The notes under the pieces: generated by a model
Databases searched by the model: none
The model's input: only the letters and a program-made list of their open reading frames with translations
Told to the model about the DNA's origin: nothing
Position numbers and translations under genes: made by a program
Shown here: piece after piece, positions 40,962-63,848 of the stretch
Numbering within the stretch: position 1 is the stretch's first letter
Layout of the letters: each line of letters starts with the position of its first letter
Assembly: GCA_963832655.1 (NCBI GenBank)
Contig: CAWHUW010000006.1
Span: 124,403 to 188,402, forward strand
From: an uncultured Thermoleophilia bacterium
GTDB taxonomy: Bacteria > Actinomycetota > Thermoleophilia > UBA2241
Reading direction: 5' to 3'
DNA: 64,000 bases

Positions 40962-41007
40962 TCTGGAGGCGGCGGCCGGAGTTGAACCGGCGATGGAGGT
41001 TTTGCAG
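40962..41007. repeat. attL: displaced copy of the tRNA-Cys 3' half
   Basis: tctggaggcggcggccggagttgaaccggcgatggaggttttgcag is identical to 63803-63848. Confidence 0.9.
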
Positions 41008-41160
41008 TCGTCAGTCGGCGGTGCGCAGGAGTAGTGAGCCAGACGCGATTGTGCTGCACAGTCCAGGTTCCTGAGCGAACTGCATGCCCGCGGGTGCTCG
41101 TCAGTGAGGAACCGTGACGAGGCGTCTTGTCGGCAACGTGTCGGCAGGAATGGCGACGGA

Positions 41161-41832
41161 CTACGTGAGCACCTTCACGCCGAGCCGAACCTTCGCATAC
41201 TCATCATTCGCCTCACGCAGGCGCGAGGTCGTCTCGTCATCAGTCGTCATGCTCATGAGCATAATCGAGTAGTACGGCGAGTCGGAATAGACGGCCGAAC
41301 ACTCGTGGTCCCCGAAGCGCCGGCGGATGACCCTGAGGTGCTCGGGGAATGGCACGTAGGTGAAGTTCTGGTAAACGGTGACGACTGAACCCGGGGCCAC
41401 TCTCCCAAGAAGTGCGTTCCCTTCCTGGTAGCGAACGTGCTTCACAGTGGCTGTTCGAGGTTCGAATCCGGTGTCAGGATCGAGGAAGAGACACTGAGCG
41501 GGCTCGCTGACGATGTCCGCGAAGTACGCATTCCGATCCCTGTCCAGCATGTGCTCGTGCGATCCGTACAGCGCGACCGAATAGCTGGCAGCCATTCGCT
41601 GCGGGAGATCAGCCAGCAGCTCCGGGTCGTGCCTGCTCCTCAGCAGATCGCAGAGACCCAGGATTCTCGGGTCACCGGGGTACTTCTCGGGAGGGTAGCC
41701 GTCCGAGCCGGGGTCGTCTGGGTTCATCATCCAGACGATCTGGAGCTGCTGGTGCCCAAGCGCCTCAACCAGGAAATGCAGGTAGTCCCATTTGAAGCAG
41801 TCCTTGGCGTCTCCGAGGTACTTGCGCTGCAT
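41161..41832 (-). CDS. hypothetical protein (orphan A)
   Basis: 223-aa intact ORF with SD GAGGAGAAG and lower GC. Motifs LGDAKDCFKWDYL and LFLDPDTGFEP could not be placed in a family. Confidence 0.6.
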   Translation of the reverse strand: MQRKYLGDAKDCFKWDYLHFLVEALGHQQLQIVWMMNPDDPGSDGYPPEKYPGDPRILGLCDLLRSRHDPELLADLPQRMAASYSVALYGSHEHMLDRDRNAYFADIVSEPAQCLFLDPDTGFEPRTATVKHVRYQEGNALLGRVAPGSVVTVYQNFTYVPFPEHLRVIRRRFGDHECSAVYSDSPYYSIMLMSMTTDDETTSRLREANDEYAKVRLGVKVLT

Positions 41833-41916
41833 CAGCTCTTCTCCTCACGATCCCGGGTTTCGACGTTACGCTGATGCTCGAGCGTCGTCACATGCGGACG
41901 AGCCGCGTCAAGTCGA

Positions 41917-41939
41917 CTTGCCGGCAACCCGCCGGCAAG
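41917..41939 (-). terminator. 9-bp perfect hairpin between orphan B and orphan A
   Basis: cttgccggc aaccc gccggcaag, with no U-tract. Confidence 0.35.
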
Positions 41940-41952
41940 ACCAATACGGTGC

Positions 41953-42912
41953 TCAGCTCGGCTCGTCCTCCAGATCTTCTTCGTCGGCAAGGTCGCCGGA
42001 CTCACTGACCAGCCGATTGATCTCACTGCGCTCCAGCTGATCCGCTGCGAGAAACCAGTCCTCAACGAGCTGGAGCTCGTGCTCTAGGGCGCTCGCCTCG
42101 GGGTTGCCCGACAGCATGTGGGCGAACCGCCTCGCGGTGTTCACGCACCACGTAGGCACTTCGATGGCATCTCGTGTCTCGAGAATCGAGTTTCCACAGT
42201 TGGCCGAGTAGTCGTCTATCGTCCACAGATCCTGTTGCTCCAGCGTCGACCAGTTGAGATGCGTTGTGAGGGAACCATTCGCGAACCAGATGTTGTAGAT
42301 GGCCCTGGCTGTGTCACCCTGCGCTCGACTAGCGATTCCGCTGGGCCATGCCTTCAATGAAGCCTTGCCTGCACTCGATTGCAGGTAGCCACGTGCGTCT
42401 TCACCCTCCCCGATGAGGCCCGCTCGCAGCAGAATCATGCTTGCCGCGACCTGCAAGTCCACCAGGGGCGAGATGCTCCTCATGAAAGCCTCGATCTCGC
42501 CCTCAGACGCCTGCTCGGGGCGCTCTGGAGCCTCGATCTGCTCTTCGTGGTAGCGAACCGGCTTCAGGAGGAACTCAACTGAGCGGCAGATGAACCCCCT
42601 GCTGGCGGCTGCGACGTCATCCGCGTTGAGCAGGTACTCCAGGTTAATCACCGCCTCCATCATGGTGCGGCCGAGAGCTGGCGCAGAGTCGGTGCGACCC
42701 GTCTCGAGCAGTGCTACATAGGCGTCAAGCAGCTTGCCGATTCGCACCATGTGCGCTCGGACCACCGCCTTCTCGATTGGATCGACGTTGGGCGGGAATC
42801 CCAGTCCGGCTGCCGCCTCAATGCAGCCCACCGCATAGCGCGCCGTCTCGAGGAGAAGTTGCCGAAAGGTCGACCAGTCGTCGACGCGTTCAGGAAGGGA
42901 TGTGAGAGGCAT
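41953..42912 (-). CDS. hypothetical all-helical protein with acidic tail (orphan B)
   Basis: Intact ORF with a probable start at MPLTSLPERVDDW. It ends ...ESGDLADEEDLEDEPS. No family recognised. Confidence 0.6.
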   Translation of the reverse strand: MPLTSLPERVDDWSTFRQLLLETARYAVGCIEAAAGLGFPPNVDPIEKAVVRAHMVRIGKLLDAYVALLETGRTDSAPALGRTMMEAVINLEYLLNADDVAAASRGFICRSVEFLLKPVRYHEEQIEAPERPEQASEGEIEAFMRSISPLVDLQVAASMILLRAGLIGEGEDARGYLQSSAGKASLKAWPSGIASRAQGDTARAIYNIWFANGSLTTHLNWSTLEQQDLWTIDDYSANCGNSILETRDAIEVPTWCVNTARRFAHMLSGNPEASALEHELQLVEDWFLAADQLERSEINRLVSESGDLADEEDLEDEPS

Positions 42913-61792: not shown

Positions 61793-61980
61793 CTGCACAG
61801 ATCGCGCGGAGGCGGGGCGCAGACACGAAGTACCGAGGGATGCCGGGCAGAGGCATGGGGGGCAGACATGACTCGGCCAAGGTCAGCGCTCGAGGAGAAG
61901 CTCATCGAGGACCACGCCGCCGCCGCGGCGGCCGTGCTGGCGGCTCGATACTGCGGCACCTAGACTTCCCCGGCGTGTCA

Positions 61981-62013
61981 GGGGAGCCCGCCGGACAGTT
62001 CAGCGGGCTCCCC
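61981..62013 (+). terminator. 11-bp perfect hairpin
   Basis: ggggagcccgc cggacagttca gcgggctcccc, about 190 nt after the M24 gene. No clear U-tract. Confidence 0.35.
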
Positions 62014-62476
62014 CGTCGCTCGTGCTTCGCGTTCACCGCGTCCTAGGCACTGACGCTGGTTGCGCCCTTCGCTGCCAACATTCTTGCCAACAAGCCCATA
62101 CGATTCGGTGGAGATGGTGGCACTGTATGGGGCCGTGTGGAGGCTAGACGGGCACCGCAGACACGGCCTGGTACGACTGAAGATCGTATCGGGGCCGCCA
62201 CTGGCTTAGCTGGTGTACGCCACCCACACAGGTCTTCCAAACCCGTTCTCGCAATGCCTCAGCACGGGGAGCCTGACTCCAAGGTCCACATCGCAAATCC
62301 GCCCAGCCATGTCGTCTGGAAGCAGGCCCCGCGTCTTCGCATCTGTGCGATAGACCAAGAGCACCCTTCCGGTGCACGCGCGCCCTATCTCCCGTGCTTT
62401 CGGCAGGCAGTCTCAGCTGCTGCAGGTCTCCCCCAGAGCGATGGTGATGTGACCGAGAGCAAGCCTGGGAGGCGTC

Positions 62477-63720
62477 ATGCAAGGTCACGTCAGGAAGCGC
62501 GGCACGGACAGTTGGGAGTACATCGCCGACGTCGGCTTGCACGCCGCCGAGCGCTGCCGGAACTGCAGGCGCGGTTCTGGGTCGAGCGGAAGCCGCGCGA
62601 GGTCTGCCCAAATGCGGCGGCAGGCTCATCGAGACCGAGGAGCGGCGGCGCGAGACCAAGGCCGGATTCGCGACGCGCAAGGAGTGCGCAGACGGCGATG
62701 AACAAGGTGCTCGTCGCGATCGAGGAGAAGAGCTACGTCGCGCCCGCCAAACTCAGCCTGCGCGAGTACCTCAAGGAGCGAGTGGCTGCCGGCAATCGAG
62801 GCGACGATCCGCCCCTCGACCTACCGCAGCTACAAGCAGCACGTCGAGTGCCACATCTGCCCGCACCTCGGTAGCGTGCAGCTGCAGAAGCTCTGCGGGG
62901 CGCAGATCAACGGCCTCTACGCGAAGCTCGCGCTCAGCGGCAAGAAGGATGGCAAGAGCGGCCTCTCCGCTCTCTCCATCCGCCACGTGCACGCCTCCCT
63001 GCATCGGGCGTTCAAGGACGCGGTGCGCTGGGAGCGCATCACGCGCAACCCCATCGAGGCCGCCGACCCGCCGCGCATCGGCGGTGACGGCACCACGGAG
63101 ATGAAGACCTGGAGCGCCGAGCAGCTCGAAGGCGTTCCTCGACGCGACCGGGGACGAGCGCCTCTCCCCCTCTGGCATCTGCTCGCGATGACCGGGCTAC
63201 GGAGGGGCGAGGCGCTCGGTCTGCGCTGGGAGGACGTCGATCTCGAGGCCGGGCGCATCTCCGTCCGGCGGGCCCTGATCCCCAACGGGCACGAGGTGGT
63301 CTCAGCGAGCCGAAGACGGCGCGAGGCCGCAGGTCGGTCGCCCTCGACCCGGAGACGGTCGAGGTGCTGAAGCGCCAGGCGGCCAGCAACTCGCCGATCA
63401 GCTCAAGAAGGGCGACGAATGGATCGACACCGGCCTCGTCTTCACCAAGGAGAACGGCGAAGCCTGGCACCCCGAGGTCGTGAGCCGCTTCTTCCGCCAG
63501 GCGGTGAAGCGGTCGAGGCTGCCGCGTGATCCGCCTGCACGACCTGCGGCACACGCACGCCACGCTGGCGCTGCGCGCCGGCATCCATCCCAAGGTGGTC
63601 TCCGAGCGCCTCGGGCATGCCACCATCGCGATCACTCTCGACACCTACTCGCACGCCATCCCGGCGATGCAGGAGGAGGCGGCATTTCGGATTGCCGAGC
63701 TCGTCTTCGCCGCCAAGTGA
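62477..63720 (+). pseudogene. int: tyrosine-type site-specific integrase with Cys4 zinc-ribbon insertion, at least 8 frame changes
   Basis: Pieces in several frames were stitched. These include MQGHVRKRGTDSWEYIADVG...CRNCRR/RFWVERKPREVCPKCGG and EWLPAIEATIRPSTYRSYKQHVECHICPHLG. Further pieces are LWHLLAMTGLRRGEALGLRWEDVDL, EPKTARGRRSVALDPETV and RLHDLRHTHATLAL...ERLGHATIAITLDTYSH, which carries the R..HxxR..Y catalytic context. Confidence 0.85.
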
Positions 63721-63802
63721 CGCCACGCGTCGGCGACATGGCAGCATTCGGTGGCATTCCGGAATGGGCTGATCGAGGAAAGTGCCCATGTGCAGGAGAG
63801 AA

Positions 63803-63848
63803 GTCTGGAGGCGGCGGCCGGAGTTGAACCGGCGATGGAGGTTTTGCA
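63803..63848. repeat. attR: 46-bp repeat overlapping the 3' half of tRNA-Cys
   Basis: Identical to 40962-41007. It spans from the anticodon loop to CCA plus 2 nt. Confidence 0.9.

Follow-up and report, generated by a model that had tools for sequence, protein, structure and literature searches.

The question raised by this locus is whether the DNA between two copies of part of a tRNA gene is an integrated element and, if so, of what kind. The window, by which we mean the whole stretch of DNA analysed, is 64 kb (64,000 nucleotides) from an uncultured sediment bacterium of the Thermoleophilia (Actinomycetota). A 46-bp sequence occurs in it as an exact direct repeat at positions 40962-41007 and 63804-63849, and no third copy was found in the 64 kb with up to three mismatches allowed. 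None of 100 dinucleotide-shuffled sequences contained any 46-mer match. The first-pass annotation of this DNA had correctly reported exactly two copies, but its position for the right copy (63803-63848) is one base off. It had also named a dispersed repeat family as a finding that would overturn its interpretation; the search for further copies revealed none. A weaker similarity (90%) extends the repeat to 40951-41012 and 63793-63854.

The tRNA-Cys site and its integrase

ARAGORN placed a tRNA-Cys(GCA) gene on the minus strand at 63806-63879, and Rfam matched the full tRNA model to 63809-63879 (68 bits). On the tRNA strand, the repeat opens exactly with the anticodon loop (CUGCAAA) and continues through the 3′ anticodon stem, the variable loop, the T arm, the 3′ acceptor strand, the discriminator, CCA, and 2 further bases. 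The right copy (63804-63849, minus strand), which we annotate as the proximal att copy, hence comprises the 3′ 44 nt of the intact tRNA plus 2 nt. The left copy (40962-41007, minus strand), identical at 46 of 46 positions and in direct orientation, is an orphan 3′ fragment of tRNA-Cys; neither ARAGORN nor Rfam called a tRNA there, and we annotate it as the distal att copy, displaced by the insertion. The repeat, ARAGORN, and Rfam agree in this with the first-pass annotation, which had described the right copy as the 3′ half of tRNA-Cys and the left copy as an orphan. A tRNA-Gly(GCC) gene, identified by ARAGORN at 63894-63970 (minus strand), lies next to tRNA-Cys. The same pair is present in five related loci (L002, L003, L116, L082, and L084), and we used tRNA-Gly, the chromosomal neighbor of the target, as a synteny marker. 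The right flank within the window is only 150 nt long.

The tRNA-proximal end of the intervening DNA carries a tyrosine integrase gene (62477-63720, plus strand; PF14659 and PF00589) with a Cys4 zinc-ribbon insert in the N-terminal domain of the product. The last base of its stop codon is 63720, which lies 83 nt from the right repeat, as the first-pass annotation had stated; in the window, however, the gene is not one open reading frame but is broken by nine single-base frameshifts. Read through these frameshifts, the protein shows 87 to 88% full-length identity to intact 414-amino-acid integrases with the same two domains (361/414 residues for the intact integrase P0001), and it holds all the catalytic motifs (TGLRRGE, EPKTARGRR, HDLRHTHAT, LGHATI, and LDTYSH). 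Scores for the NCBIfam Xer and integron models were far below the cutoffs. No excisionase gene was recognized in the element. By sequence, the nearest solved structures are Tn1549 Int (PDB 6EMZ and 6EN0) and the integrase 3NKH (E values of 1e-13 to 7e-16). The kinship is distant: the proteins share the tyrosine-recombinase catalytic and core-binding domains, whereas the integrase described here differs in its N-terminal arm-type domain, into which a Cys4 zinc ribbon (CxxC...CxxC) is inserted, and in targeting a tRNA gene.

Both ends of the element carry sequences that are conserved elsewhere. The left arm (41008-41160) contains repeated GTCGGCA motifs and resembles the sequence beyond the orphan tRNA fragment in L087, an independent short-read contig; identity is 86% over 41008-41072, patchier to approximately 41150, and lost beyond that point. 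The right arm (63721-63803) contains a motif, AGTGCCCnTnTGCAGGAGAG, that adjoins the 3′ end of the tRNA and is conserved in the window and in three sister elements (L084, L082, and L081). This motif is absent at the unoccupied tRNA-Cys loci L002 and L003. The conserved arms may represent the regions bound by the arm-type domain of the integrase, with the GTCGGCA repeats as candidate sites on the left and AGTGCCC..TGCAGGAGAG on the right.

We looked for an unoccupied site by joining the flanks (39500-41007 and 63850-64000) and aligning them to related Thermoleophilia loci. In three relatives (L116, L003, and L002), the joined flanks aligned continuously over the junction, at 89 to 92%, as expected from the first-pass annotation, which had proposed an empty tRNA-Cys site as a check. 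In L116, cfa is followed by a 92-nt spacer and then by tRNA-Cys and tRNA-Gly; L003 has the same arrangement with a 620-nt spacer, and neither has the island. L002 has the same order of cfa and tRNA genes, but with ~4 kb of other DNA between them. The cfa genes of these relatives are only 83 to 87% identical to that of the window, and no empty site of the same species was found. In the closest population, represented by L087 (cfa 98% identical), this site is occupied by a sister island. In the nearest metagenome-assembled genome (L006), the arrangement after cfa differs.

Base composition also changes at the repeats. The GC fraction is 0.717 for positions 1-40961 and 0.665 for 41008-63803, and the tetranucleotide distance to a reference of 1-33 kb is 0.18 to 0.39 inside the island versus 0.10 to 0.20 outside. 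The GC and k-mer profile proposed in the first-pass annotation is therefore as anticipated, with lower GC and a larger distance between the repeats. In sediment metagenomes, the left flank was covered at a depth of 20 to 90, and depth fell to ~0 just beyond the left repeat, by 41.25 kb. The island is nearly missing from indexed public runs, which contained at most 6 to 13% of its words and so yielded no read evidence of a circular or excised form.

We conclude, with a probability of approximately 0.88, that the window contains a ~22.8-kb integrative genomic island (41008-63803 plus one 46-bp core copy) in tRNA-Cys(GCA). Integrase-mediated insertion at a tRNA gene is what the first-pass annotation had proposed, and each element of that signature was found when tested. 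The island would have arisen by recombination of a circular attP with the tRNA attB inside the 46-bp identity block. The element supplies its own version of the tRNA segment between the start of the anticodon loop and 2 nt past CCA, so that the tRNA-Cys gene is regenerated and stays intact, and the chromosome's own 3′ part now lies 22.8 kb away as the orphan fragment. Identical sequence hides the crossover point; by analogy with the anticodon-centered class of tRNA sites, crossover most likely occurs at the anticodon loop. For an uncultured and poorly known actinobacterial lineage, these boundaries tell accessory DNA apart from core DNA. The integrase and its precisely delimited att site could become an integration tool for high-GC Actinomycetota.

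The island is real but ordinary, a textbook tRNA-integrated defense island of a kind already known. Of the 3,919 islands in the Islander collection, 3,760 have a 3′ tRNA fragment, and 2,083 have an anticodon-centered site (Hudson, Lau and Williams 2015, PMC4383910). Four features by which Islander recognizes islands were found here: an intact tRNA, a displaced fragment, an integrase (frameshifted) that is neither Xer nor integron type, and a site that is empty in relatives. Like the anticodon-centered (class A) islands of that study (PMC4383910), this one lies between a regenerated tRNA and a direct-orientation 3′ fragment, with an internal PF00589 integrase adjoining the tRNA and an identity block running from the anticodon loop to the tRNA 3′ end; the limits of the block, at the first base of the anticodon loop and 2 nt past CCA, fit the expectation for class A. 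What sets it off in this comparison is its host, an uncultured Thermoleophilia lineage, and its target, tRNA-Cys(GCA).

Cargo of the island

Two predicted restriction systems dominate the cargo. The first is McrBC-like: a frameshifted gene for an McrB-like AAA+ GTPase subunit (49425-51644, minus strand; AAA_5; NF008457 McrB, E value of 4.5e-38) adjoins a frameshifted gene for an McrC-like subunit (48127-49466, minus strand; PF10117 McrBC, E value of 1e-29 for the read-through translation), as expected for a type IV restriction system. The second is a putative type III restriction-modification (R-M) system. The gene for the Mod methyltransferase (52837-55470, minus strand; ~880 amino acids; ~28 frameshifts; N6_N4_Mtase PF01555, E value of 5.5e-25) adjoins that for the Res helicase-nuclease (55580-58619, minus strand; ~1,000 amino acids; 36 frameshifts; ResIII PF04851; PADLOC REase_III), and the pair is colinear with that of a sister island, L214. 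Amino acid identity to the intact proteins of L214 is 66 to 85% for Mod (884 amino acids) and 64 to 70% for Res (1,012 amino acids).

Between the left arm and the mcrC-like gene lie several further genes. Three on the minus strand are intact and encode a 223-amino-acid product (41161-41832) with no match in Pfam, PADLOC, or PHROGs, a 346-amino-acid DUF5677 protein (41953-42993; PF18928, E value of 2e-11), and a 317-amino-acid XRE-type helix-turn-helix regulator (43022-43975; HTH_3, E value of 9e-19). A small DUF4160 open reading frame (43929-44213; E value of 9e-5) overlaps the start of the regulator gene. On the plus strand, a gene that is frameshifted in the window (44437-45528) and was traced by a frame HMM and read-through translation encodes an uncharacterized coiled-coil protein with no family match. 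It is followed by two plus-strand genes that form a pair. The first (45650-46624) encodes an uncharacterized protein of ~324 amino acids, and the second (46630-47895) encodes an intact 421-amino-acid hydrolase of the metallo-β-lactamase (MBL) fold, β-CASP (RNase J-like) type (PF12706, E value of 2e-15; TIGR00649; PDB 2az4, RNase J). At the other end, between the type III genes and the integrase gene, are plus-strand genes for a PotD-like periplasmic solute-binding protein (59335-60517; SBP_bac_8; NF007048 PotD, E value of 3e-43) and an intact 426-amino-acid M24/creatinase-like hydrolase resembling ectoine hydrolase (60512-61792; Peptidase_M24 and Creatinase_N; DoeA-like).

The first-pass annotation had described restriction and defense genes in the interior, and matches to Pfam, PADLOC, and NCBIfam confirm their presence. 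Judged by its predicted genes, the cargo is mainly for defense against phage and foreign DNA, by McrBC type IV and type III Mod/Res systems. Defense islands on integrase-borne elements show the same clustering of R-M and McrBC genes as is seen here together with an XRE regulator, toxin-antitoxin-like small genes, and uncharacterized genes. Compared with known defense islands, nothing is unusual except the pair formed by the 324-amino-acid protein and the β-CASP hydrolase. In L168 and L169, a homologue of the former (28% identity; E value of 3e-14) is encoded immediately upstream of the gene for the MBL homologue. The pair recurs in another defense-rich locus and has no entry in PADLOC 2.0; hence, it could be a previously undescribed antiphage system.

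Frameshifts and alternative origins

The broken reading frames raise the alternative that the island is a dead relic, in which the frameshifts are real, the integrase, McrBC, and type III R-M genes are pseudogenes, and the element is neither mobile nor defending. The window sequence itself has 9 frameshifts in the integrase gene, 36 in res, and ~28 in mod. Moreover, the indels are patchy, with five intact open reading frames of 0.7 to 1.3 kb among genes that have an indel every 80 to 140 nt, a pattern not expected if errors arose uniformly. However, abundant single-base indels begin at ~33.2 kb and continue to the window end, and the same type occurs outside the island, in the chromosomal S9 peptidase and cfa genes. 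All are single-base changes, mostly insertions, in random sequence context. The read-through proteins are 64 to 88% identical over their full length to intact homologues, with at most one in-frame stop codon, in Res, and the unselected orphan repeat copy has accumulated no mismatch in 46 bp. At exactly the positions where frame changes were predicted in the flank, the R-M genes, and the binding-protein gene, the extra base is missing from short-read contigs of other samples or related populations, which indicates that the indels probably stem from assembly error and not from decay. We consider a relic improbable and conclude that the long-read assembly most likely introduced the frameshifts of the island genes as consensus errors. 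An annotator would call most of the island genes pseudogenes; since the evidence favors local consensus errors, conclusions about gene content or a "decayed island" drawn from this contig would be wrong.

Actinobacterial temperate phages and integrative and conjugative elements of the AICE type typically integrate in the 3′ part of a tRNA gene, using a tyrosine integrase and an identity block of ~46 bp. Among AICEs, pSAM2 (tRNA-Pro) and SLP1 (tRNA-Tyr) recombine attP with the tRNA 3′ part over ~45 to 60 bp of identity and have a tRNA-proximal integrase gene. The island shares this position of the integrase gene and a high-GC actinobacterial host with pSAM2 and SLP1, and a prophage or an AICE/ICE, rather than a passive island, would have the same tRNA 3′ integration. 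In contrast to those AICEs, it has defense cargo and no Rep, FtsK-like Tra, or recognizable Xis was found. Open reading frames and read-through translations from 41 to 63.8 kb were searched using Pfam, PHROGs, and PADLOC, and no genes for replication (replication initiator or primase-polymerase), conjugation or transfer (FtsK/Tra-like or type IV secretion), or virions (terminase, capsid, portal, or tail) were found; the only PHROGs matches were of the regulator and hydrolase types. No relative of the integrase with >35% identity was found among the 2.9 million viral contigs of IMG/VR, and the sister elements, too, carry only defense cargo. A prophage or AICE/ICE is accordingly very unlikely; the missing gene classes point to an island that depends on its integrase and, for transfer, on help from elsewhere. 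We give still less credence to an assembly artifact, in which a foreign segment was joined at the shared tRNA sequence. The contig is metagenome assembled, with a consensus of locally low quality from 33 kb on, but each type of junction is seen independently in short-read contigs: the left one (cfa, orphan fragment, and left arm) in L087 and the right one (integrase, right arm, tRNA-Cys, and tRNA-Gly) in L084 and L082. Furthermore, 46 bp of identity is far too short to fool a long-read assembler, and relatives share the synteny of the outer flanks.

Sister islands at the same tRNA pair

The closest relatives of the integrase (84 to 88% amino acid identity; L081, L082, and L084) are encoded, in matching orientation, next to the same tRNA-Cys/tRNA-Gly pair and alongside different cargo, and L087 combines cfa with an orphan fragment and a homologous left arm. 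These loci mark the interval from cfa to tRNA-Cys as an integration hotspot. Tentatively, the integrase and the two conserved att arms might constitute a tRNA-Cys(GCA)-specific platform for cargo swapping, widespread in sediment and wetland Thermoleophilia, in which the type III R-M pair would be an older backbone, other modules would be exchanged among sister islands, and the pair of genes for the 324-amino-acid and β-CASP proteins would possibly encode the undescribed antiphage system; we regard this extended reading as rather doubtful. The sister elements swap cargo that includes Mrr, an SMC-like ATPase, an SNF2 helicase, an HNH nuclease, and AAA_13, and the sister island L214/L215 has the same type III R-M genes beside an integrase gene whose product is 82% identical.

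The repeat pair, its target tRNA and the flanks

The window contains exactly two copies of the 46-mer TCTGGAGGCGGCGGCCGGAGTTGAACCGGCGATGGAGGTTTTGCAG, one at 40962-41007 and the other at 63804-63849. Allowing up to 3 mismatches gave no third copy in the window, and 100 shuffles yielded no copy. The first-pass annotation had reported an exact 46-bp pair; both copies are present, but its right-hand coordinates were one base too low. ARAGORN places a tRNA-Cys(GCA) gene at 63806-63879 and a tRNA-Gly(GCC) gene at 63894-63970, both on the minus strand. In an Rfam search, the right copy of the repeat coincided with a full-length tRNA, and the left copy had no match. 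Read on its own strand, the tRNA-Cys is GGCGGCG-TA-GCC-AAGTGGTAA-GGC-A-GAGGT-CUGCAAA-ACCTC-CATC-GCCGG-TTCAACT-CCGGC-CGCCGCC-T-CCA. The repeat extends on this strand from the first base of the anticodon loop to 2 nt beyond the CCA; hence, the left copy is a displaced 3′ tRNA fragment. Weaker similarity continues for ~11 nt past the 3′ end. Neither a degenerate nor a third att copy was found inside the island, and there is thus no sign of a tandem array. The window has another tRNA gene, tRNA-Arg(CCG), at 14299-14375 (minus strand), which is unoccupied and has no repeat or integrase nearby.

A GC and k-mer profile bore out the earlier impression of a compositionally distinct interior, with lower GC content and larger tetranucleotide distance. 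GC content was 0.717 to the left of the repeat versus 0.665 between the repeats, and the tetranucleotide distance (4-kb segments, relative to a 1-33 kb reference) was 0.18 to 0.39 inside the island and 0.10 to 0.20 outside it. Core words (from 14-20 kb) had a share of 0.3 to 0.46 in >20 metagenomes from sediment, wetland and soil; the share of island words was at most 0.06 to 0.13. Contig depth over 33-46 kb in four such metagenomes was 20 to 90 until the left repeat and ~0 from 41.25 kb on.

The left-flank gene is cfa (cyclopropane-fatty-acyl-phospholipid synthase; 39.2-40.5 kb), whose relatives identify the host as a member of an uncultured Thermoleophilia lineage. Three loci fetched from relatives (L003, L116 and L002) have a tRNA-Cys(GCA) gene and a tRNA-Gly(GCC) gene after cfa and on the other strand, and the spacer between cfa and tRNA-Cys is 620 nt, 92 nt and ~4 kb, respectively. 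Flanks joined in silico (39500-41007 plus 63850-64000) aligned unbroken over the junction to all three loci (89-92%), a comparison that is not within one species, because these relatives are only 83-87% identical to the window in cfa. The corresponding interval in the window is 457 nt (40505-40961). The cfa-tRNA-Cys interval is a variable hotspot, hypervariable among relatives.

The closest population is represented by a short-read contig, L087, in which cfa is 98% identical and the site is occupied. Here, the same orphan tRNA fragment (44 nt) lies 27 nt after cfa, and beyond it is DNA resembling the left end of the island (86% over 41008-41072, patchier to ~41150 and divergent thereafter); the contig contains no tRNA. 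L087 is a sister island that occupies the same site, and it provides independent confirmation of the distal type of junction. An apparent joint in public metagenome run X5 (40477 to 40964), considered as an empty site, proved to be the junction of this sister island. No empty-site contig could be isolated among the short-read contigs over both junctions, where contigs are fragmented and the tRNA is highly conserved.

We also considered the closest metagenome-assembled genome locus, L006, as evidence on the site. It is syntenic over 31.1-40.5 kb, but it is not informative, since cfa is followed there by unrelated DNA with no tRNA within 10 kb, an arrangement also found in L001. Several further observations concern this region. 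The window may encode a small membrane protein at 40404-40829 (minus strand). In the related locus L115, the interval is 7.5 kb long and contains MTTB, DAO and RCC1-repeat genes; the 3′ end of cfa is also duplicated there over 90 nt, and L088 has this same duplicate. In L114, a 3′ fragment of an integrase gene lies immediately after cfa.

Integrase, putative attachment arms and class of element

Frameshift-aware alignment to the related 414-aa intact integrase P0001 located a tyrosine integrase gene at 62477-63720 (plus strand). In the window, this gene is broken rather than a single open reading frame (ORF): the alignment has 9 single-base shifts, of which 4 are insertions and 5 are deletions, and 361/414 identities. 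The P0001-guided read-through contains no in-frame stop, and it retains the tyrosine-recombinase motifs LRRGE, EPKTARGRR, HDLRHTH, LGHATI and LDTYSH. Its N-terminal domain carries a Cys4 zinc-ribbon insert, CRNC...CPKC (CxxC...CxxC; 62540-62640); in the family, this insert separates the arm-type N-terminal strand from the SAM-like core-binding domain. Scores for Xer and integron models were far under their cutoffs, and the closest structures that have been solved are those of Tn1549 Int and 3NKH. The family is abundant in metagenomes (7942 proteins at an E value of ≤1e-20); no relative with >35% identity was found in IMG/VR. Some family members carry the JGI annotation “integrase / Zn-ribbon protein.”

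Contigs of the closest relatives repeat the geometry of the window: the genes for P0001 (88% identical) and P0016 (84%) lie 1.7 kb and 389 nt, respectively, from tRNA-Cys and tRNA-Gly, and in the case of P0016 the integrase gene is plus-strand and the two tRNA genes are minus-strand. P0026 (80%) has no tRNA nearby. These gene neighborhoods show a site specificity that holds within the family at identities of at least 84%.

On the element side of the right junction, the sequence AGTGCCCnTnTGCAGGAGAG, adjoining the tRNA 3′ end, is conserved in the window and in the sister loci L084, L082 and L081; L002 and L003, where tRNA-Cys is unoccupied, lack it. At the left end, ~150 nt are common to the window and L087, and GTCGGCA-type repeats are present at both ends of the island. 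We infer that these conserved end sequences are putative attP arm regions. A second att copy was not found in L081, L082 or L084, all of which are incomplete.

The anatomy of the island, its synteny, the site specificity of the integrase family (at identities of at least 84%) and the conserved arms were demonstrated here; the route of insertion is proposed. A circular element carrying attP (right arm, 46-bp core and left arm) would have recombined with the tRNA-Cys attB inside the identity block. Crossover was probably at the anticodon loop, by likeness to the anticodon-centered class, which accounts for about half of Islander's 3919 islands (PMC4383910). The element-borne core would then have regenerated tRNA-Cys. 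Family scans, PADLOC and PHROGs found no phage, replication or conjugation genes in the island, and the small ORFs of its coding gaps yielded neither an excisionase nor an HTH_17 gene. The island differs from an AICE/ICE and from a prophage in that the defining modules of each are missing, whereas every testable defining feature of a tDNA island was found. The earlier observation was borne out, as was its interpretation as a tRNA-integrated island, and the joined-flank alignment that it had proposed as a check gave the expected result. We concluded that the island is an ordinary example of a very well known kind, the tDNA island; it adds an integrase and an att site from an uncultured lineage.

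Cargo of the island and its sisters

Cargo was described from read-through translations (codon-usage Viterbi path), because the genes are frameshifted. On the minus strand, an ORF of no known family (41161-41832) is followed by genes for a DUF5677 protein (41953-42993) and for an XRE HTH regulator with a small DUF4160 ORF (43022-43975). Two uncharacterized genes (44.4-46.6 kb) and a gene for a 421-aa MBL/beta-CASP (RNase J-like) hydrolase (46630-47895) lie on the plus strand. Next are McrC and McrB (48.1-51.6 kb) and type III Mod and Res (52.8-58.6 kb), all on the minus strand, and a PotD-like binding protein with an M24/creatinase-like hydrolase (59.3-61.8 kb; plus strand). The uncharacterized ORFs had no match in PADLOC or PHROGs. 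A pair consisting of a gene for an uncharacterized protein of ~324 aa and the beta-CASP gene (45650-47895) recurs in fetched loci L168/L169 (6913-9266), alongside EcoRV restriction-modification, PemK, AbiEii and ParE genes. Neither member matched PADLOC 2.0. The pair is a candidate two-gene defense module.

The defense cargo of sister islands differs: L081/L082 carry DUF5677, Mrr, methyltransferase, SMC-like ATPase and SNF2 helicase genes, L213 carries ResIII and AAA_15 genes, and L214/L215 carry HNH and AAA_13 genes together with the type III Mod/Res genes of the window (77-88% nucleotide identity), immediately beside the integrase. Relative to L214 (9843-9912), the window has ~3.7 kb extra at 58.7-62.39 kb, holding the binding-protein and M24 genes. 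This difference from L214/L215 shows a gain or loss of cargo within the element. Using tblastn (E values of 1e-6 and 1e-5), we found no match between island cargo and the fetched loci beyond the type III Mod/Res genes of L214/L215, and the DUF5677 genes of the window and L081/L082 have no detectable mutual similarity. A contig from public metagenome run X3 skips 61920-62162.

Single-base indels

Few same-strand frame changes occur in 1-33 kb, and most of those are gene boundaries; from ~33.2 kb onward, as far as the window extends, they are frequent. Guided by intact homologues, we counted 9 indels in the integrase gene, 36 in Res (27 of them insertions), ~28 in Mod and 1 in cfa. An S9 peptidase gene (33-37 kb) has ~10, and chromosomal genes are hit as well as island genes. 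Single-base indels number roughly 100 in all, and 1-33 kb is clean. The indels are single-base, insertion biased, in random context and unaccompanied by nonsense mutations; no shared sequence motif was found at their sites. Short-read assemblies of other samples are shorter by exactly one base at predicted sites in the flank (33212, 33480, 34655, 34763, 35013, 35323, 35559, 36394, 36758 and, in cfa, 40044), in the restriction-modification genes (56734, 56818, 57088, 57432 and 57723) and in the binding-protein gene (59425). The MBL protein of the window is encoded on a contig of 575,757 nt, a length that points to long-read assembly. We concluded that the indels are likely long-read consensus errors rather than decay. 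The apparent pseudogenes of the island are thus probably assembly errors, a warning for annotation.

The density of indels is patchy. The stretches 41161-43975, 46630-47895 and 60512-61792 have none, and 52.8-58.6 kb and the integrase gene have one per 80 to 140 nt; five ORFs of 0.7 to 1.3 kb are clean among such indel-rich genes. The indel-rich genes tend to have many relatives of 80-95% identity in the same kinds of sample, which suggests mixed-read polishing as a possible source of the patchiness.

Elsewhere in the window, Rfam model RF00380 matches an M-box (magnesium) riboswitch over its full length (146 bits) at 5950-6121 (plus strand), upstream of a gene starting near 6097-6196.
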